Shown: piece after piece, positions 1,601-63,362 of the stretch
Numbering within the stretch: the stretch's first letter is position 1
How the letters are laid out: the number at the start of each line of letters is the position of its first letter
Origin: an uncultured Candidatus Saccharibacteria bacterium
Lineage (GTDB): Bacteria > Patescibacteriota > Saccharimonadia > Saccharimonadales > AWTP1-31
Length of the DNA stretch: 64,000 bases
NCBI GenBank assembly: GCA_964409615.1
Contig: CAYPDT010000001.1
Span: 243,880 to 307,879 of the forward strand
Reading direction: 5' to 3'
The notes under the pieces: model-generated
Told to the model about the DNA's origin: nothing
Databases searched by the model: none
What the model saw: the letters and a program-made list of their open reading frames with translations, nothing else
Translations under genes and position numbers: made by a program

Positions 1601-3076
1601 CTAGTTCCGTTTAGCGGCGATAGAGTAGCCGATGGCAGACAAACCAAGTAGTGTGGCGATAACCACGCCAAGTAGAGATACTGAATTGATGCCGGTGTTT
1701 GGTGCGGCAGCATTAGTGCCAGCATTTGCATTGGTGGTTGTAGCTGAGCAGACAGCACCTTCGAATTGGTAGGCACCAACAGATGGACAAGAATTACGGG
1801 CTACACCACGAGCATCGGTAGATATGCCTAAGACCTGACCACCGGCGTTAATTGCCGGACTACCTGCCAATAAGGCCATGGTTGGTACAACACCACCATT
1901 GTCCTGCAGCGGGCCGAGAGTGCTGAAAAGATTGGCAAGATTTTGTTGGTCGCCGGGTTGGGTAAAGGTGGTACACGTACTATCGTCGGATAAATTATGG
2001 CCGTCGGAAATAATCCCGGTAGTAACCGTGCCTGTCAGGCCACCAAATGCCGCATTACCATTTAATTCAGCACAGTTGGACGATACATTATCGCTGATAT
2101 TATTGGTGAGCAGGCTATTTTCGACGTTCATAGTAACGGACGAGGTGTGCGGTGTCGCCGCTGCTCCACCGGTGAAGAAGGCCACTGAATTTTCACCAAT
2201 CGAACCAGTACTTCCGTCAAGTCCGACAACTGTTACGTTTTTTACAATCACACTGATGGTGGTATCACCGCTCAACGCCGCACCAATGCTTCCAAATCCT
2301 AGCGCTGCTGCAGAAGCAGTTATGTTATTAATAGTTGTATTGTAGACATTTGCATTTACCGTGCCGGTTCCGGCTATTAGGACAAAGAAGGCTCCGGCAT
2401 CGCCAGCAGAGTTATGTATATTTGCTACCGTAGTATTCTGTATATTGGCCGTAGGTGTAGAGGTATTAAAGGCATATACCCCACTAGTTGCCGCGGCGTC
2501 TAGATCATGAATATAGACGTTATTAGCTGTCGTGGTAACATTGGCCGCTGCGGAGTTGCCCAGTTCCACACCCTTTAATTGGTTCCCCGTTGGCAGGGCG
2601 TTAGTGCCATCTATTTCAATGTTTGATAGTGTCACACTGCCATTGGTGCTGATAATTCCTTGCCCAAGATAGCTGGCTATTTTCAAGTCCTGGACAGTAA
2701 CGACAGCCGTAGAACTGTTGATGCGAATTGTGCGATATTGCCCAGCATTTCCATCAATTGTCGTCTGGCTCATCCCAGCTCCCTGGATCTTGACCGACAC
2801 CGATATTGTCGGTGAATCTGCTGTTAACGTCTGCGTGCCTGCAGGTATGGTAATGGTGTCATTGGTTCCATAGCCGTCTGGTGAGACTGTAGCTGTGCAG
2901 CCGGATTGATTAGAACCGGCATTAACCGAGTCAATCGCGATTGGCAGGGTACAGCCACCGGTGACGTTAAGGGTTGCCGCATGCGCCCGACCGGAACCAG
3001 AAGCAAGCACCGCCAGGAAGGCGAATGTTGCGAGGATTAGTTTGTTTGTTTTTGTTAGATTCAGAATACTGATCAT
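1601..3076 (-). CDS. Sortase-anchored surface protein, beta-helix-like repeats, APNTG sorting signal (paralog 1)
   Basis: Signal peptide (..GSGRAHA/ATLNV) followed by a G/N/T-rich repeat core. The C-terminal module is GHNLSDDSTC..DARGVAR..GAYQFEG (choice-of-anchor-Q-like). It ends with APNTG, a hydrophobic helix and a KRN tail. Confidence 0.75.
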   Translation of the reverse strand: MISILNLTKTNKLILATFAFLAVLASGSGRAHAATLNVTGGCTLPIAIDSVNAGSNQSGCTATVSPDGYGTNDTITIPAGTQTLTADSPTISVSVKIQGAGMSQTTIDGNAGQYRTIRINSSTAVVTVQDLKIASYLGQGIISTNGSVTLSNIEIDGTNALPTGNQLKGVELGNSAAANVTTTANNVYIHDLDAAATSGVYAFNTSTPTANIQNTTVANIHNSAGDAGAFFVLIAGTGTVNANVYNTTINNITASAAALGFGSIGAALSGDTTISVIVKNVTVVGLDGSTGSIGENSVAFFTGGAAATPHTSSVTMNVENSLLTNNISDNVSSNCAELNGNAAFGGLTGTVTTGIISDGHNLSDDSTCTTFTQPGDQQNLANLFSTLGPLQDNGGVVPTMALLAGSPAINAGGQVLGISTDARGVARNSCPSVGAYQFEGAVCSATTTNANAGTNAAAPNTGINSVSLLGVVIATLLGLSAIGYSIAAKRN

Positions 3077-3114
3077 GGAGTAATTCCTTTATACATCGTT
3101 TTAGCTTTACCGGT

Positions 3115-3143
3115 ATTCTACCCCCCCCTGAGATACAAAGCAA
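3115..3143 (-). promoter_or_regulatory. Putative sigma70-type promoter TTGCTT-N17-TAGAAT with a G8 tract in the spacer
   Basis: Read on the minus strand, -35 is at 3138-3143 and -10 at 3115-3120. The spacer is 9 nt plus G8 (3121-3128 on the plus strand as C8). Confidence 0.45.
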
Positions 3144-3294
3144 GAAACTAGCTCTAAAGATCATCACTGAGTATCTCCGAGACATCTACGTGGCGTTGGC
3201 AGTCTTCGATACTCCGTCAAGCCAAGGTGATGGCGAGGATTCGCTCAAAGTCAGTCTGTGCTGCAGCCAAGTCTTCATCATAAGTTACCAATAA

Positions 3295-3981
3295 TCACGA
3301 CTGTGCTTCGGCGACAACTATCACTCGAGAATCGTAAGTTTTGCTGGCCTTGTCGAATCTACCAGTACAGGTTATCAAGTTAAGTTGCTTTGCAATGGTA
3401 TTGTGACGGACAAACAGCGCCGTATCGGCTTCTTTAGTAGTAACCCTCTGCACTTTCCTGATTTTGAACCTACGGACACTTTTATCACCGAAAGTTACGG
3501 TAAAGGCATCACCGGCTTTTAGCCTACCAAGGCTATAGAATATCCCTTTGGCGTACAGCCCATGTACATGCCCGTCAATAATACTGAGGCCAGCATCACC
3601 AGGCAAGGAGCCCTTGGTGTACCAGCCAGCCATATTAACATTACTAGGGACTACCATCTGGTTATCTTTGTCTACGCCTACTTGCTGAATAAAGCCTTCT
3701 GTTTTGATAGTTGGCAGCTGAATGGATAGTGGCTTATCTGCTGGGACACTGTAATTATCTGGTACTGGCTGTTCGCTGGGAGTGTCGGTGGATTCTGTTG
3801 CTACGGTGTGTCCAGTCGGTACACCGGCATGTTGAATGAAGTACCAGTTTCGTATTGCATTCAGGCCAACGCCAACAAGTAATATGCCTACTATGAATAA
3901 CGCAAAGCGAATATTTCGTTGATTCTTAGAGACTGCTCCACGCTTTGATAATCTATTGCTACGCTTCTTGTGCCGAACCAT
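3295..3981 (-). CDS. Sortase (class E/F-like transpeptidase)
   Basis: N-terminal basic segment plus one TM helix. Conserved His (IIDGHVHG), catalytic Cys motif LITCTG, and conserved Arg (SRVIVVA). Confidence 0.8.
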   Translation of the reverse strand: MVRHKKRSNRLSKRGAVSKNQRNIRFALFIVGILLVGVGLNAIRNWYFIQHAGVPTGHTVATESTDTPSEQPVPDNYSVPADKPLSIQLPTIKTEGFIQQVGVDKDNQMVVPSNVNMAGWYTKGSLPGDAGLSIIDGHVHGLYAKGIFYSLGRLKAGDAFTVTFGDKSVRRFKIRKVQRVTTKEADTALFVRHNTIAKQLNLITCTGRFDKASKTYDSRVIVVAEAQS

Positions 3982-3996
3982 AGGTACTAATATAGA

Positions 3997-5475
3997 CTAG
4001 CTCGAGCGTTGTTGCTTGCGGAATACGTATGTTAGTAGTCCAATGCCAAGCATGCTGGCAAGTACATTGAGTATTTGTGCTATAGATCCAACACCCGTGT
4101 TTGGAGCTCCTGCGTTACTACCGCCAGATGCAGATGGAGTAGAAGCACCGCAGACAGCACCTTCGAATTGGTAGGCACCTACAGATGAGCATTCATCTGG
4201 GCGTGCTACGCCACGGGCGTCAGTGGTGACACCTAGAACTTGTCCACCAGCAGCGATAGCTGGAGAACCTGGCAAAAGAGCTCGTGTTGGAACTGCTCCG
4301 CCGTTATTCTGGAGTGGACCGAGAGTGGATAGTATGTTGCTGACATTTTGCTGATCACCTGATTGGTTGAAGGATGAGCAGCTGTCATCGTCTGAAATGT
4401 TATGGCCGAACGATAGAAGTGATAGATTCACTGTGCCCGGGCTACTGAACGTCGTGAGTGTACAGTTGGCAGCTGAGCCCATATGCGTATTACCCGCTAA
4501 TAGCGCATTGCCAACTGACAACGTTACACTTGCAGTTCTCGCATTCCCCGCCATACCACCAACGAATAAGGCGCTACTAGTCTGGCCATACTGCCCTAGC
4601 GCGGCCCCCGCGACATTAGTTACTGTTATATTTTGGAGTACGGTACTGAATACTGAATCACTACTATTTGCTCCACCTACATTTGCGAATCCAATCGCTG
4701 TATGCGCAGCCTCTAGGTTATCGATCGTAGTATTTACAATGCGAGAATTGACGGTACCGACTCCCATTACAAGAAATCCAAATACATCTCCACCACTGTT
4801 CGTGAGATTTGAGATAGTGGTATTCGATATGTCTATGGTACTTGATAAGCCATCTTGCAATTGAGTCTGAATACCGTGGACTATCCCTGATGTTGATGCT
4901 AAGTCATGAATGTATAGGTTATTGGTAGTTATACTATTGTCAACACCTTGGCTGTTCCCTAGCCACAATCCCCAGAGGGGTCCGCTATCAGGCTGAGCTT
5001 CGCCACCATCCACCTCAATATTTTCGAGCGTGAGAGCCCCTCCGTCATTCCATATACCTGCCCCAAAAAACTCTACAATGGTCATACCCTTTAATCTGAT
5101 ATTATCATTCGGGCTTTCAATATTAAAAGGTGCGTACAGTCCACTATCACCACTGATTACGGTCTGTCCCATACCTGCCCCCTGGATAGTCACCGATTCG
5201 GTTATGGCAGGCAAATCTGCTGTCAACGTAATCGTCCCCGCAGGAATAGTAATTGTATCGTTCGTGCCGTACCCACTAGGAGATACCGCGGCCGTACAAC
5301 CAGATTGGTTGGCACCTGCATTCACCGAATTAATAGCAATAGGAAGCGTACATCCGCCCGTGACGTTAAGGGTCGCTGCATGCGCCCGACCCGAACCAAA
5401 GGCAAGCACTGCCAAGAAGACGAAAGCTGCCAGGACTAGTTTGTTTGTTTTTGTCAGGTTCAGAATATTGAGCAT
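3997..5475 (-). CDS. Sortase-anchored surface protein, beta-helix-like repeats, APNTG sorting signal (paralog 2)
   Basis: The N-terminal ~90 aa and C-terminal ~130 aa are near-identical to the 1601..3076 product, while the core is divergent. It ends with APNTG, a hydrophobic helix and an RKQQRSS tail. Confidence 0.75.
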   Translation of the reverse strand: MLNILNLTKTNKLVLAAFVFLAVLAFGSGRAHAATLNVTGGCTLPIAINSVNAGANQSGCTAAVSPSGYGTNDTITIPAGTITLTADLPAITESVTIQGAGMGQTVISGDSGLYAPFNIESPNDNIRLKGMTIVEFFGAGIWNDGGALTLENIEVDGGEAQPDSGPLWGLWLGNSQGVDNSITTNNLYIHDLASTSGIVHGIQTQLQDGLSSTIDISNTTISNLTNSGGDVFGFLVMGVGTVNSRIVNTTIDNLEAAHTAIGFANVGGANSSDSVFSTVLQNITVTNVAGAALGQYGQTSSALFVGGMAGNARTASVTLSVGNALLAGNTHMGSAANCTLTTFSSPGTVNLSLLSFGHNISDDDSCSSFNQSGDQQNVSNILSTLGPLQNNGGAVPTRALLPGSPAIAAGGQVLGVTTDARGVARPDECSSVGAYQFEGAVCGASTPSASGGSNAGAPNTGVGSIAQILNVLASMLGIGLLTYVFRKQQRSS

Positions 5476-5512
5476 TGAAGTAGTTCCTTATATTATTTAT
5501 AGCGTTACCGGT

Positions 5513-5542
5513 ATTGTACCCCCCCCCGAATATAGTGCGCAA
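5513..5542 (-). promoter_or_regulatory. Putative promoter TTGCGC-N18-TACAAT with a G9 tract in the spacer
   Basis: Read on the minus strand, -35 is at 5537-5542 and -10 at 5513-5518. The spacer is 9 nt plus G9 (5519-5527 on the plus strand as C9). Confidence 0.4.
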
Positions 5543-5634
5543 ATTTTTGTATAAAATCATGTCTCTTTCCCCTAGAAACAGACCAACCATTATTTGCTTT
5601 GCAAACACTGGTTACAAGATAAGGACTTCACATG

Positions 5635-6414
5635 CTAACGTTCTATAGTTAGAAACTCAAATTTTATAGTTACCCAGTTATTGTCTAGCTCTCGTTTAGT
5701 CAAGTTCTGTAATCTTCGCTCCAGTATTTTTGTTTCACAAGCTATAAGTACAACTGGAAAGTCGCGTTCGGTGACTTTCTGCCACTTTTCTGACTCCGCA
5801 TAGGTAATGTAGCGTCTGATGCTGTTCTTGATCCTCCAGTAGGGCGCACTGGCCTCATAGAAGCTCAGGAAATAGTCTGGGGCAATTAGTTGGAGCTTGT
5901 TCGTGCCTCCATTGTCAGTAATCTCTTCGTTCTTTTGTAGGTAGGCATCCGTAAGGTCTCTTGGGAGCTTGTACTTCAAGCTAGGCAGTTCAGTCTTGCT
6001 GAAGAACTGAAATTGCTTGGGGTAATTTTGTTTAATAAATACGTACGCCTTAAAGACGTTCAGTCTGTGTTGGATATGACCATCGTCTTTGTTCTTGTCG
6101 TAGTAGATTTGTTTGAGTGCGTTTGGATCTGCAAATGGTTGCTGTCTGAGTACCTGTATTCCTTTGGGAAGTAAGTGATAAGTAGCTGGTTTACCGATGA
6201 TCTTATAGCTTTTGTCATAGTTCTGACCAATATAGCCTTGATCTACTAATATCTTTAGTCTTGTTAGTATTACTCTGGTATGTTTAGCTCCCTGACTTGA
6301 GGCAATGATTTGAGCTGTTATATAGCGAAATTTATATAGTGTAGTGAGTAGTTGAAGTTGATGTGAGTTTATGGGTCGATGTTTAGTGTTGGTGGGTTGT
6401 GGTGTTGTGTTCAT
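5635..6414 (-). CDS. Hypothetical protein, possibly replication-relaxation family (winged-helix N-terminus)
   Basis: The N-terminal segment LQLLTTLYKFRYITAQIIASS..RLKILVDQGYI resembles a winged-helix DNA-binding domain. It lies between surface-protein genes and a recombinase. The family call is tentative. Confidence 0.35.
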   Translation of the reverse strand: MNTTPQPTNTKHRPINSHQLQLLTTLYKFRYITAQIIASSQGAKHTRVILTRLKILVDQGYIGQNYDKSYKIIGKPATYHLLPKGIQVLRQQPFADPNALKQIYYDKNKDDGHIQHRLNVFKAYVFIKQNYPKQFQFFSKTELPSLKYKLPRDLTDAYLQKNEEITDNGGTNKLQLIAPDYFLSFYEASAPYWRIKNSIRRYITYAESEKWQKVTERDFPVVLIACETKILERRLQNLTKRELDNNWVTIKFEFLTIER

Positions 6415-6601: not shown

Positions 6602-6769
6602 ATGATACAGACAGAACCAATACAACCCAGTCCAGAGGACACTTCCGAAGCGCCGTTATCAGATAACGAGCGCATCGATCTCATCGCTAACTTACTTTTA
6701 GATTACTTAGACGAAGAGCAGTCGGGAGAAAAGGGGTCATGCAAGACGACGCAAACAAAAATGCTGTAG
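6602..6769 (+). CDS. Small acidic ORF (55 aa) overlapping the recombinase start; doubtful
   Basis: ATG at 6602 preceded by GTGGGGG; product MIQTEPIQPSPEDTSEAPLSDNERIDLIANLLLDYLDEEQSGEKG.. It overlaps the recombinase start by 31 nt, is below the ORF-track size cut-off, and shows no recognisable motif. Confidence 0.2.
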   Translation: MIQTEPIQPSPEDTSEAPLSDNERIDLIANLLLDYLDEEQSGEKGSCKTTQTKML

Positions 6770-8454
6770 CTGCTATTCGTGTCTCGACCACCAAGCAGGG
6801 TACTGAGGGTGACTCACCTGAAGCTCAGAAAGAACAAATAGAGCGTTTTGCTTTAACCCGTGGCATCACCATAAAAAAGTTTTTCGTGTTTTTGGAATCC
6901 GCTAGTAAAGAACAACAACCGATGCAGGAAGCCATTGATTACTGCAAGAATCCCAAGAACGGGATCGAGCTGTTTATCATAAAATCGATCGATCGTTTTA
7001 CTCGCGGCGGATCGCTTTCGTACGACCTACTCAAAAACCAGCTGGAAGCAAATAGCGTGTCATTGGTAGACATTTACGGCGTGATTAGTTCTCGGCAGGT
7101 GAATACCCTAGAACACCTCGGTTTTGAATATAAGTGGAGTAAATACTCACCAAGTAAGAAGTCCGAGATATTAGAGGCTGAACGCTCCAAGGATGAGCTA
7201 AGAGACATTATGAGCCGTATGATTGGGGCTGAGATTCGCTATACCCAACTAGGTTTCTGGATGCGACAACCGCCGTTCGGTTTTGTCAGTGAAAAAGTCG
7301 AAACAAATAACGGCAAACGCTGCATCTTACGACCACACCCGACTGAAGCCCAATACATTACTAAGATTTTCGATCTTCGAGCCCGTGGCACTATGCGCGA
7401 TATGGAGATTGTTGAGGAAGTTAATAAACTTGGTTATCGAGGACGAGTGCAATATGTCCGAGATAAGAGTGATCGGTCTAAAGTTTTAAAGAAACGTGGA
7501 GGCGACCCCTTAACCCTCAAAGCCTTGGATCGTATTGTCTCTAATCCAATCTATGCTGGGATTAATGCCGAGAAATGGACTGACGGGAAACCAGTGCAGT
7601 GCGCTTTTGACGGGCTCGTATCTATCGACCAGTTTAACCGCGCGAACAAAGGTAAGAAGATCATCACCAAAGATGATCAAGGCGACATTTTCATCATCAA
7701 CAGAGCGCCAGAGCCACGCTACGCAGTCATCAAAGGCACTCGCAATCCTGATTTTCCATACCGCAAGTTTGTTCTGTGCCCAGAGTGCCATAGACCGCTA
7801 ATTGGCAGCGCATCGCGGGGTAAGTCCGGTAAACATTATCCAGCTTATCACTGTGATAAACGCGGCCATTATTTTCGTGTACCTAAAAAGGAACTGGAGG
7901 ATAGAGTGAATGAATTTATAAACGGTATTCGTGTCTCGCCGGAGCAGGTCGATAAAGTTTTGGCTGTTATTGAAGCCGAGTGGAAGAAGCGGGAACAGGC
8001 GCTCAAACAAGAGGTTGAGACGCTTGATAGCCACATACTGGGCTTACGTACCGAAATTGACATGACTGGAAGCAAGATTAAGCTCGTGAGCAACGAGACA
8101 GCAATTAAATACATAGAGGAGGACATTGTGCGTATAGAACAACAAATTAAAGAGCTGGAGGCTACGAAGATGAAGAAGATAAACCGTAAACCCATTAATT
8201 GGCAGGGTCTGAAAGCTAGGGTTCGCTACCTGGCGGAACACTTTGATGAGCTACTACTACAACAGATTGATCCGGTCAAAAAAGCTCAATTTTTTGCTGC
8301 ATTATTCAATAAATTTCCAACATTTGAAGATCTAGCCAGCGGAACACCCGGCAAGCCAAACTTTACAGGGGTGAATCCAATATTTTCTCTTGCTAAATTA
8401 CCTACTACCCATTTGGTGACCTCACGGGGAATCGAACCCCGATTGCCGGGATGA
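6739..8454 (+). CDS. Large serine recombinase
   Basis: N-terminal resolvase domain with the catalytic Ser context AAIRVSTTKQ. A recombinase domain follows, then a Cys/His zinc-ribbon (CPECHRPL..YHCDKRGH) and a C-terminal coiled coil. The last ~14 codons are antisense to tRNA-Glu. Confidence 0.9.
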   Translation: MQDDANKNAVAAIRVSTTKQGTEGDSPEAQKEQIERFALTRGITIKKFFVFLESASKEQQPMQEAIDYCKNPKNGIELFIIKSIDRFTRGGSLSYDLLKNQLEANSVSLVDIYGVISSRQVNTLEHLGFEYKWSKYSPSKKSEILEAERSKDELRDIMSRMIGAEIRYTQLGFWMRQPPFGFVSEKVETNNGKRCILRPHPTEAQYITKIFDLRARGTMRDMEIVEEVNKLGYRGRVQYVRDKSDRSKVLKKRGGDPLTLKALDRIVSNPIYAGINAEKWTDGKPVQCAFDGLVSIDQFNRANKGKKIITKDDQGDIFIINRAPEPRYAVIKGTRNPDFPYRKFVLCPECHRPLIGSASRGKSGKHYPAYHCDKRGHYFRVPKKELEDRVNEFINGIRVSPEQVDKVLAVIEAEWKKREQALKQEVETLDSHILGLRTEIDMTGSKIKLVSNETAIKYIEEDIVRIEQQIKELEATKMKKINRKPINWQGLKARVRYLAEHFDELLLQQIDPVKKAQFFAALFNKFPTFEDLASGTPGKPNFTGVNPIFSLAKLPTTHLVTSRGIEPRLPG

Positions 8455-8488
8455 AAACCCGATTTCCTAACCGTTAGAAGATGAGGCC
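8414..8488 (-). tRNA. tRNA-Glu (anticodon TTC), CCA encoded
   Basis: Manual cloverleaf: acceptor GGCCTCA/TGAGGTC, D arm TTCT/GGAA, anticodon stem TCGGG/CCCGG with loop TTTTCAT, T arm CGGGG-TTCGATT-CCCCG, then ACCA. Confidence 0.85.
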
Positions 8489-8591
8489 TTCTTATGTCAT
8501 GACCAGTCTTTGTACCCTGGCTTAGATGACAAATAAAGGAACCTGAAGATTATAACATAACAGAGACAGAATTGAAATAGACTACCAATTT

Positions 8592-9563
8592 TTAGCGCGT
8601 ACTGCGCAGTTTATAAGCGCGACGTGCATAGTGCAAAACCCCAAATACATATCCTACCGAAACCAACGCCCAGTAGACAACCGAAAACCGAGCTTGAAAC
8701 AATTCAACACTAAAAAACACAGCGGCAGCAAGGTAAGTCACGCTAAACCATGCGAACTGTTTTAGGTAATGACTTGTCTTAGTGGCATTACTCACACTAT
8801 ATAGTCGCTGAAGCTCAGTTATTTGTTCGGAGTTAAAAGCTGGCGCTGGGTGCGTTTTATCGAGTACTTCTCGCATCAAGATATGGGCAGCATTTATCAG
8901 AGTTTTGGTTGAGGCACTATATTCCAATTGTGCAGCACCACTTCTGAAATAAAGAAAAATACTGTTCCCGCTAAATTCAACGTCGATCATGGTTGGAAAA
9001 TCTATTAAGCTACGCATAACATCTGGGGTTAAGATGGTAAGTACTGCTTGCTCAGTACCTCGTGAGCACAAAACATCAAAGTAGCTATGAAAATCACCCT
9101 CTAACAAGTACTGGCTTGGAATAGCCACCATGTCGTCAAGCGTGTCTTCGATGAGAGTGTCATTTGCCTTCCGGTTCAGAACTATCCTTGGGAATTCTCG
9201 CGTTGTAATTAGCCGCAATACGCGTGTCCTATTTGCAACACCATTTGTTTCGCTAATTACTAACATATCTGCTCGCAAGGTCGTACCAGGCAGAAAGCCT
9301 TTGATAGCCTCACTGACTCCACGACTTGTGCCCATGGCAATGTTTTTAAGAGCCGCAGGTGGCCGATGATGATAATAACCCAGCTCCCAACCAGCCTGAG
9401 TTGCCCATTGAACGTATGGTTGATTATTGGAATTCGCCGTGTCAGCTGCCGGATTGGCCACTTTCGTCATAGCAGGTGATGAAGGAGTGATATTTGCGGA
9501 AGGGTTAGAATTGTTTGCAGGATTTTTTTGTGGTTCCATTACAGACAATATACCACTCGTCAT
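8592..9563 (-). CDS. Hypothetical membrane protein
   Basis: Long ORF with a low-complexity N-terminus and C-terminal hydrophobic helices (FAWFSVTYLAAAVFF.., VVYWALVSVGYVFGVL). Confidence 0.5.
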   Translation of the reverse strand: MTSGILSVMEPQKNPANNSNPSANITPSSPAMTKVANPAADTANSNNQPYVQWATQAGWELGYYHHRPPAALKNIAMGTSRGVSEAIKGFLPGTTLRADMLVISETNGVANRTRVLRLITTREFPRIVLNRKANDTLIEDTLDDMVAIPSQYLLEGDFHSYFDVLCSRGTEQAVLTILTPDVMRSLIDFPTMIDVEFSGNSIFLYFRSGAAQLEYSASTKTLINAAHILMREVLDKTHPAPAFNSEQITELQRLYSVSNATKTSHYLKQFAWFSVTYLAAAVFFSVELFQARFSVVYWALVSVGYVFGVLHYARRAYKLRSTR

Positions 9564-34348: not shown

Positions 34349-34373
34349 GTTTCCAAGGTCGGACCTTGGAAAC
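34349..34373. repeat. REP-like palindrome copy a (GTTTCCAAGGTC-G-GACCTTGGAAAC)
   Basis: Perfect 12-bp arms around a central G. It lies between the crp-like stop and the folD start. The same 25-mer recurs at 51844 and, nearly, at 63296 and 63340. Confidence 0.8.
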
Positions 34374-51843: not shown

Positions 51844-51868
51844 GTTTCCAAGGTCCGACCTTGGAAAC
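51844..51868. repeat. REP-like palindrome copy b (GTTTCCAAGGTC-C-GACCTTGGAAAC)
   Basis: Identical arms to copy a with the central base complemented, meaning opposite orientation. It lies between the sortase stop (51885) and the tsaB start (51816). Confidence 0.8.
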
Positions 51869-63295: not shown

Positions 63296-63362
63296 GTTTC
63301 CAAGGTCCGACCTTGGATTACACTTGTGGTATTTTGATTTTTCCAAGGTCGGACCTTGGAAA
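63296..63362. repeat. Inverted doublet of REP-like palindromes (copies c and d) upstream of the RAYT gene
   Basis: Copy c (63296-63317) is GTTTCCAAGGTC-C-GACCTTGGA. Copy d (63340-63362) is TTTCCAAGGTC-G-GACCTTGGAAA. They are separated by a 22-nt spacer and have opposite central bases (opposite orientation). Confidence 0.8.

Follow-up and report, generated by a model that had tools for sequence, protein, structure and literature searches.

Paralogous surface-protein genes and their putative promoters

The stretch of DNA analysed here (the window; 64,000 nucleotides of Candidatus Saccharibacteria contig CAYPDT010000001.1) contains two paralogous genes on the minus strand that encode predicted sortase-anchored surface proteins, and each gene is preceded by a putative promoter with a G homopolymer between its −35 and −10 hexamers. 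Copy 1 (1,601–3,076) encodes a 491-residue protein composed of a signal peptide, a beta-helix body with a choice-of-anchor Q domain and, at the C-terminus, a PNTG sorting signal, and copy 2 (3,997–5,475) encodes a paralog of 492 residues. The two proteins are approximately 54% identical (alignment A1) and match the choice-of-anchor Q family NF041518 with 64.4 bits (copy 1) and 63.0 bits (copy 2) against a cut-off of 25. A protein identical to copy 1 was found in seven other assemblies. An exact look-up of the copy 2 protein returned no record, and P0001, whose identity to it rounds to 100%, served as its relative. All close homologues originate from Saccharibacteria metagenome-assembled genomes, which agrees with an earlier annotation made from the sequence of this stretch (the original prediction) that had placed the DNA in an organism of the Candidate Phyla Radiation (CPR) type.

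The AlphaFold2 model of copy 2, for which 40 homologues were used, has a mean pLDDT of 82 and features a long, confident beta-rich core. Its best matches in the PDB are all right-handed parallel beta-helix proteins, namely, GH87 glucanases, AlgE4, PL6 lyases, tailspikes, and rhombotarget A. The TM-scores of these matches are low and support the fold class only, which in the model is that of a parallel beta-helix. The N-termini of both copies are signal peptide-like, with a predicted helix ending in AHA-AT. Their C-termini consist of an APNTG sequence, about 20 hydrophobic residues and a basic tail (AAKRN or RKQQRSS), and the copy 2 model shows a helix at residues 465–491. The sorting motif is PNTG rather than LPXTG; in the family alignment, T460 is nearly invariant and G461 is invariant, with N459 outside the invariant and near-invariant columns.

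A sortase gene (3,295–3,981, minus strand; PF04203, E-value 6.9e-18) lies between the two copies and is closest to class F, although its score of 115 bits against the class F model NF033748 is under the cut-off of 166. What marks a sortase substrate is accordingly found in both proteins and beside them: signal peptide, C-terminal motif, hydrophobic segment, basic tail, and a sortase gene nearby. The original prediction had described the pair as paralogous, sortase-anchored beta-helix proteins, and the identity between the copies, the choice-of-anchor Q matches, the copy 2 model and these sorting features bear out each part of that description. Because the sortase gene starts only 15 nt past the copy 2 stop codon, it is probably co-transcribed with copy 2, and the same gene order is repeated in the related loci L025, L029, and L053. 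Between the sortase stop codon and the copy 1 promoter lies a region of about 150 nt (3,140–3,294, minus strand) that is kept in L009 and L010 and absent in L001. A spurious-looking open reading frame (2,967–3,185) within this region runs through the copy 1 tract and may be a gene remnant.

Read on the coding strand, the copy 1 promoter starts with a putative −35 hexamer TTGCTT (3,143–3,138), followed by 9 nt (3,137–3,129), a G8 tract that forms the −10-proximal part of the spacer (3,121–3,128; C8 on the plus strand), and a putative −10 hexamer TAGAAT (3,115–3,120). A Shine-Dalgarno-like AAGGAA (3,084–3,089) precedes the ATG at 3,076, and AGGAA occurs at the equivalent position in most of the family promoters listed. 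Copy 2 has the same arrangement, with TTGCGC (5,537–5,542), 9 nt (5,536–5,528), a G9 tract (5,519–5,527; C9 on the plus strand), TACAAT (5,513–5,518), AAGGAA (5,484–5,489), and the ATG at 5,475. The −10 hexamers were assigned from the sequence and by family comparison, and the tracts by the sequence and a scan for homopolymer runs. The deduced spacers are 17 nt for copy 1 and 18 nt for copy 2, exactly as had been read from the minus strand in the original prediction. Both −35 hexamers match TTGACA at three of six positions; for this reason, a generic promoter scan of the window listed neither promoter, and we take this result as support neither way. The composite promoter pattern occurred once in the window (copy 1) versus zero times in shuffled sequences. 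Canonical promoters, such as TTGACA-17-TATAAT and TTGACA-17-TACAAT, were present elsewhere in the window upstream of other genes.

Apart from the two tracts, the 64-kb window is free of G/C runs of seven or more. According to an analytic estimate under a first-order model, 0.46 G/C runs of at least eight are expected and two were observed; for A/T runs of this length, about 4.4 are expected and none was observed, which indicates a general avoidance of long homopolymers in this genome. The two tracts belong to paralogs and so are not independent, and the run statistic from the window by itself is weakly significant. Judged from the sequences compared below, it is conservation in relatives that lifts the observation above chance.

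The 5′ untranslated regions (UTRs) of the two genes share an 8-bp palindrome, TACCGGTA, located inside AATACCGGTAAMGCTA (3,107–3,114 and 5,505–5,512, minus strand) and present in most related promoters as well. It starts at the last base of the −10 hexamer, around the expected transcription start site, and is more conserved than the coding sequence; this palindrome could represent an operator or a 5′-UTR element. A second UTR class in the family has the sequence TAGACTACCwrTTAAACAC. The Rfam scan of the whole window matched tRNAs only, so neither 5′ UTR contains an RNA element known to that database.

Tract-bearing promoters in related genomes

We gathered 68 related loci through exact-protein look-ups, a scan of a genome collection and a DNA pattern scan. 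Among Saccharibacteria assemblies, these loci contained 17 distinct tract-bearing promoters that follow one layout: TTGC, 2 nt, a further 8–9 nt, G7–G10, and TAnAnT, with the ATG located about 40–45 nt past the tract, beyond a stretch that holds an AGGAA-type ribosome-binding site. The TAnAnT hexamer abuts the tract in 17 of 17 promoter groups. Upstream of the tract, several classes of sequence with little resemblance to each other can be distinguished, and the distance from TTGC to the 5′ end of the tract is nevertheless kept in all 17. Whatever the tract length, its 3′ G's hold register with the −10 hexamer, and what changes is the distance between −35 and −10; the deduced spacers are 16, 17, 18 or 19 nt only. 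A homopolymer between the two hexamers is the layout in the window and in these 17 promoters, and we infer from this arrangement that the hexamers serve as promoter elements.

At least six tract-bearing genes were found in one genome, distributed over two contigs as a tandem of four (G9, G9, G7, G8) plus two more (G7, G8). One of the 17 promoters has a different cargo: in L010, the same promoter and UTR module, TTGC-N-G9-TAGAAT (6,610–6,618), precedes the gene (6,669–9,290) of an unrelated 873-residue Big_7 surface protein, which starts with a signal peptide and has an LADTG-type sorting signal at its C-terminus. The more distant P0067 and P0099 groups (39–43% identical) are encoded within operons and have no promoter tracts, so the poly-G promoter is specific to the subfamily with the MxSILNLTKTNKL signal peptide and its near relatives. 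Scanning a viral collection with the −10/5′-UTR pattern gave no match, and the same scan of metagenomes returned four loci only, one of which (L021) was a chance match without a tract.

At least eight members of the family have no tract. These genes feature an extended −10 element, in most cases of the form TGnTACAAT (TGcTACAAT, TGaTACAAT, TGtTACAAT or TGtTACACT), whose distance from the ATG is about that seen in the tract-bearing promoters; a TTG −35 element is absent. Such promoters correspond to positions ~7,960–8,001 in L011, ~2,880–2,917 in L014, ~4,555–4,594 in L023, ~1,825–1,867 in L049, ~3,960–4,000 in L057, ~280–318 and ~2,190–2,228 in L062, and ~2,080–2,118 in L063. Those of P0012 and P0052 are identical in four and five assemblies, respectively. 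Because the extended −10 of these paralogs lies at about the same distance from the ATG, the tract-less class acts as an internal control and supports assignment of the hexamer after the tract as the −10. Extended −10 sigma-70 promoters do not need a −35 element and are insensitive to spacing. The poly-G promoters have no TG extended −10 and retain a conserved −35-like element, and on these grounds they should be sensitive to spacing.

This control also bears on whether transcription starts at these hexamers at all. The true promoter could be situated farther upstream (e.g., TTGTAA-17-AATAAT, 5,617–5,589), or the genes could be reached by read-through, in which case the tract would act within the 5′ UTR or by reiterative transcription. 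The generic scan does give a site matching 9 of 12 positions at 5,617–5,589 upstream of copy 2, and it detected no terminator-like site in the interval separating the sortase gene from the copy 1 promoter; in addition, some promoter classes have a −10-like hexamer (e.g., TATATT or TAACTT) within the 8–9 nt before the tract. However, these pre-tract hexamers vary by class, whereas the TAnAnT right after the tract is invariant, TTGC is kept at a constant distance from the tract 5′ end, and the extended −10 of the tract-less paralogs falls at about the same distance from the ATG. We consider an upstream start improbable.

Tract length differed between loci that were otherwise indistinguishable. 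The copy 1 promoter has G8 in the window and in five other assemblies and G9 in L003, with 1,637 nt otherwise identical. Four samples of the P0023 locus with different accession prefixes showed G9 twice and G10 twice and no other difference over 2,308–2,974 nt, and two samples of the P0076 locus showed G8 and G10 with 0 mismatches over 5,922 nt. The copy 2-type promoter, with identical 12-nt and 16-nt flanks, contained G7, G9 or G10 among assemblies; in L025, which encodes the near-identical P0001, the tract is G10, with 10 mismatches over 1,639 nt relative to the window. As a control, a coding G7 run in the L042–L048 group was invariant in seven assemblies. This run and one joined to junk sequence at the start of L026 were the only G runs of at least seven found outside such promoters in the scanned related loci. 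Since the tract is the sole difference at three loci over 1.6–5.9 kb, we regard it as close to certain from these alignments that the tract mutates far faster than its surroundings, i.e., that it is hypermutable.

The original prediction had suggested comparing tract lengths in related genomes, and this comparison yielded the range G7–G10 together with the three loci that differ in the tract only. Along with the layout of the 17 promoters and the tract-less extended −10 class, these results support its proposal of a slippage-prone tract within the spacer. Its caveat that sequencing error might account for the G8 versus G9 difference between the two copies finds little support: G8 of copy 1 recurs in five independent, otherwise identical assemblies, so the difference does not stem from a single faulty read. 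By itself, the offset of one G between the window copies is no evidence of switching.

A more general form of this concern is that the homopolymer is hard to sequence and assemble, that every difference in length is an artefact of this, and that the tract is ordinary. Metagenome contigs do break at poly-G promoters: L027 and L028 begin at the G run at position 1, junk sequence (1–28) is joined to the tract in L026, and an N gap (~2,065–2,115) covers it in L016. Both contigs from JGI sample 3300045347 also have one G more than the window. Yet breaks at the tract are expected in any case, as sequence downstream of it is shared by paralogs and presents the assembler with a repeat. The lengths moreover recur across independent projects (for copy 1, G8 in six sequences, the window among them; for P0023, G9 twice and G10 twice), the P0076 contigs differ by 2 nt with no mismatch over 5.9 kb, and the coding G7 run stays constant in its seven assemblies. 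An explanation by artefact has little chance of being correct. The 3′ end of L034 likewise falls at such a promoter, and poly-G tracts followed by the shared repeat are assembly break points. We considered contig ends at the tract as a sign of heterogeneity within samples and set this idea aside because the downstream repeat shared by paralogs explains the breaks equally.

Proposed mechanism and mobile-element context

We propose that the poly-G promoters are probably slipped-strand contingency promoters of a sortase-anchored beta-helix surface-protein family in Saccharibacteria. Each gene would be transcribed from its own sigma-70-type promoter, in which a weak −35 (TTGCnn) is combined with a good −10 (TAnAnT) and no TG extended −10, and such a promoter should depend on the distance between its hexamers. 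With the G tract occupying the −10-proximal half of the spacer, slipped-strand mispairing during replication would add or remove G's and set the spacer to 16, 17, 18 or 19 nt, and this would change promoter strength in a heritable and reversible manner. As each paralog has its own tract, a population could express differing combinations of surface proteins, and the anchoring enzyme would vary too where the sortase is co-transcribed, as is probably the case with copy 2. The state of the window would then be copy 1 at the canonical 17-nt spacer and copy 2 at 18 nt.

The steps of this proposal differ in their footing. Two features of contingency loci were observed directly, i.e., a tract that is hypermutable relative to its flanks and a surface-protein cargo; surface proteins are the usual cargo of such loci. 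The listed hexamers are presumed to be the promoter actually used, and that tract length would alter transcription follows from the spacer rules of sigma-70 promoters and from the canonical 17-nt promoters of this genome. We likewise infer switching within a population. That the benefit would be varied host attachment, or escape from recognition by phage or host, is speculative.

Several observations weigh against the proposal. The −35 hexamers match only half of the consensus, and the generic scan was without these promoters. Six assemblies of one project all have G9, G9, G7, and G8, and the five other copy 1 assemblies all have G8; given this stability, any switching would be too slow to blur consensus sequences. 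The visible paralogs of L001, L010, L025, and L053 all have 16-, 18- or 19-nt spacers and none has 17. Finally, the tracts of L003 and L025, each one G above the window, come from the same JGI sample, and a sample-specific homopolymer bias may be responsible.

The stability of the consensus lengths would also be in keeping with a G run that is a fixed cis-element, either a protein-binding site or a G-rich motif just upstream of the −10 that is preferred by the housekeeping sigma factor, in which length changes are near-neutral, tolerated and without a switching effect on expression. All spacers seen (16–19 nt) could still function, and the conserved palindrome TACCGGTA after the −10, as a possible operator, hints at conventional regulation. 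Such an element would not lead one to expect a range of G7–G10 between orthologous promoters with identical flanks, nor a tract that is the sole difference over 1.6–5.9 kb. Furthermore, the constant register of the tract 3′ end with the −10 means that length alters the −35 to −10 distance, and the tract-less paralogs do without the run by using a TGn extended −10. We therefore view a fixed element as unlikely, while taking it seriously.

The extent of homology between the two copies raises one further possibility. The paralog homology passes through the tract and ends just upstream of it (repeat D3; 3,099–3,131 versus 5,497–5,529), and, viewed from the other side, it begins at the tract (3,129–3,131 and 5,528–5,530). 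In related loci, for example, the flank ccttgcattgtatctca is followed by tagaataccgg in some promoters and by tacaataccgg in others, and gacttgctcaaaatatc by tagaataccgg or tagactacc. One upstream flank thus occurs with different downstream modules and the reverse, which suggests module exchange at or near the poly-G. The tract might on this evidence be mainly a recombination junction, where microhomology among paralogs allows upstream and 5′-UTR/gene modules to be swapped, with switching secondary or absent. As a full account this is very improbable, since it leaves unexplained both the single-G changes between otherwise identical contigs and the confinement of spacers to 16–19 nt; the idea is compatible with slipped-strand switching rather than exclusive of it. 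None of the alternatives to slipped-strand contingency promoters covers the tract-only differences, the 16–19-nt range, and the extended −10 control class together.

The genes around the pair point to a mobile element. A type IV coupling protein of the VirD4/TraD-like type, identified by profile matches and cut by the start of the window, is encoded at 20–1,531 on the plus strand; full-length homologues of 874–889 residues are present in L002–L004. Directly upstream of copy 2 is a Replic_Relax-family gene (5,635–6,414, minus strand; PF13814, 30 bits). Further along, a large serine recombinase (6,739–8,454, plus strand; a Resolvase match and weak Recombinase and Zn_ribbon_recom matches) is the probable integrase of the element, and the 3′ end of its open reading frame overlaps a tRNA-Glu(TTC) gene identified by the Rfam/tRNA scan (8,414–8,488, minus strand). 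This tRNA gene, or a site next to it, is probably where the island integrated, and the other end of the element is beyond the window. From this gene content, the locus looks like an integrative, conjugative-type element, in agreement with the mobile element proposed in the original prediction.

A Replic_Relax-family gene is also found immediately upstream of the first family gene in L025, L029–L034, L049–L051, and L068, including loci that adjoin IS1595 transposases. This association may be functional beyond a role in mobility only. An invertible, recombinase-driven promoter was considered and rejected, as no convincing inverted repeats bracket either promoter. The nearby serine recombinase gene is located at the element border beside tRNA-Glu. 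Elsewhere in the window, a perfect 21-bp palindrome, TTCCAAGGTCSGACCTTGGAA, occurs in four intergenic copies (34,351–34,371, 51,846–51,866, 63,298–63,318, and 63,341–63,361) and in none of the shuffled sequences; REP-like elements and terminator hairpins are possible explanations.

A broader and more tentative hypothesis combines these elements into a combinatorial, phase-variable surface coat of environmental Saccharibacteria, carried on an integrative conjugative-type island. Up to six or more tandem beta-helix adhesin-like genes would each be switched by a poly-G promoter of their own, some with a dedicated sortase, the extended −10 subset would be constitutive, and the tract would additionally serve as a junction for module reshuffling. 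We put this forward as a possibility that is at present doubtful.

Significance and comparison with known phase-variable systems

How Saccharibacteria and other CPR episymbionts recognise their host bacteria, attach to them and persist there is poorly understood. If the slipped-strand interpretation is correct, a set of hypermutable promoters would be a sign that selection on this gene family fluctuates, and the family would for that reason be a prime candidate for determinants of host range or phage evasion. Should the combinatorial coat exist, it would be the first system of contingency loci reported for the CPR, and its proteins would be pointers to attachment to host bacteria or evasion of them. 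Slipped-strand contingency loci are documented mainly in animal pathogens and mycoplasmas; our interpretation, if true, would extend them to environmental ultra-small bacteria. For genome curation, tracts located at assembly breaks in several metagenome assemblies should be treated as true polymorphisms.

A full-text literature search identified no description of phase variation of the simple sequence repeat type, slipped-strand mispairing or contingency loci for Saccharibacteria, Patescibacteria or the CPR, which is in line with the remark in the original prediction that such a switch was not known from CPR-type bacteria. The nearest case in the literature concerns a Gracilibacterium, in which a 9-mer repeat within a gene is hypervariable (PMC6851277). 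The mechanism itself is familiar; its occurrence in this clade and in this protein family and the division of the promoters into two classes are apparently new.

The closest match among known systems is the vlp family of Mycoplasma hyorhinis, in which each surface-lipoprotein gene is reportedly preceded by a poly(A) tract in its promoter spacer, a finding said to be due to Yogev et al. (1991) and Citti and Wise (1995). Both bacteria have reduced genomes and depend on a host, and in both the variable surface proteins form a clustered multigene family, with a promoter for each member, a homopolymer between −35 and −10, and a promoter, 5′ UTR and signal peptide that are highly conserved ahead of a variable body. 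In both, independent switching of each member could give combinatorial expression, which for Saccharibacteria is deduced from sequence. The Vlp system is cited in a review (PMC11868660). The two systems differ in the tract, which is poly-G of 7–10 here versus poly-A of about 17–20 in M. hyorhinis, and in the proteins, which are sortase-anchored beta-helix proteins here versus lipoproteins with internal repeats. Unlike vlp, the Saccharibacteria family is partly under the control of tract-less extended −10 promoters.

In composition, the tracts are closer to those of Neisseria meningitidis, where promoter-spacer tracts have reportedly been described for porA (poly-G; van der Ende et al., 1995) and opc (poly-C; Sarkari et al., 1994). 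There too, a G/C homopolymer of about 9–13 separates the −35 from the −10 element of a gene for an outer-surface protein, and single-nucleotide changes result in high, intermediate or no expression, i.e., volume control rather than strict ON/OFF switching. However, porA and opc are single genes of a Gram-negative pathogen with experimentally mapped promoters, whereas the Saccharibacteria promoters are predicted from sequence and belong to two to six or more tandem genes per genome of an environmental CPR bacterium.

The poly-C tracts of Bordetella pertussis fim2 and fim3, reportedly described by Willems et al. (1990), are likewise C/G homopolymers that directly precede the −10 of a gene for a surface structure, and here too the tract length sets the distance to an upstream element. 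This element is a BvgA activator site in B. pertussis fim, whereas in Saccharibacteria it would be the −35 hexamer. Homopolymer microevolution in Bordetella is treated in a further study (PMC1891110). Finally, intragenic poly-G slippage is described for sortase-dependent pilus genes of Bifidobacterium breve (PMC9187656). The likeness lies in a G-tract slippage switch on sortase-dependent surface structures. In B. breve, though, the tract is inside the coding sequence and causes a frameshift, whereas the Saccharibacteria tract is situated in the promoter and would act on transcription.

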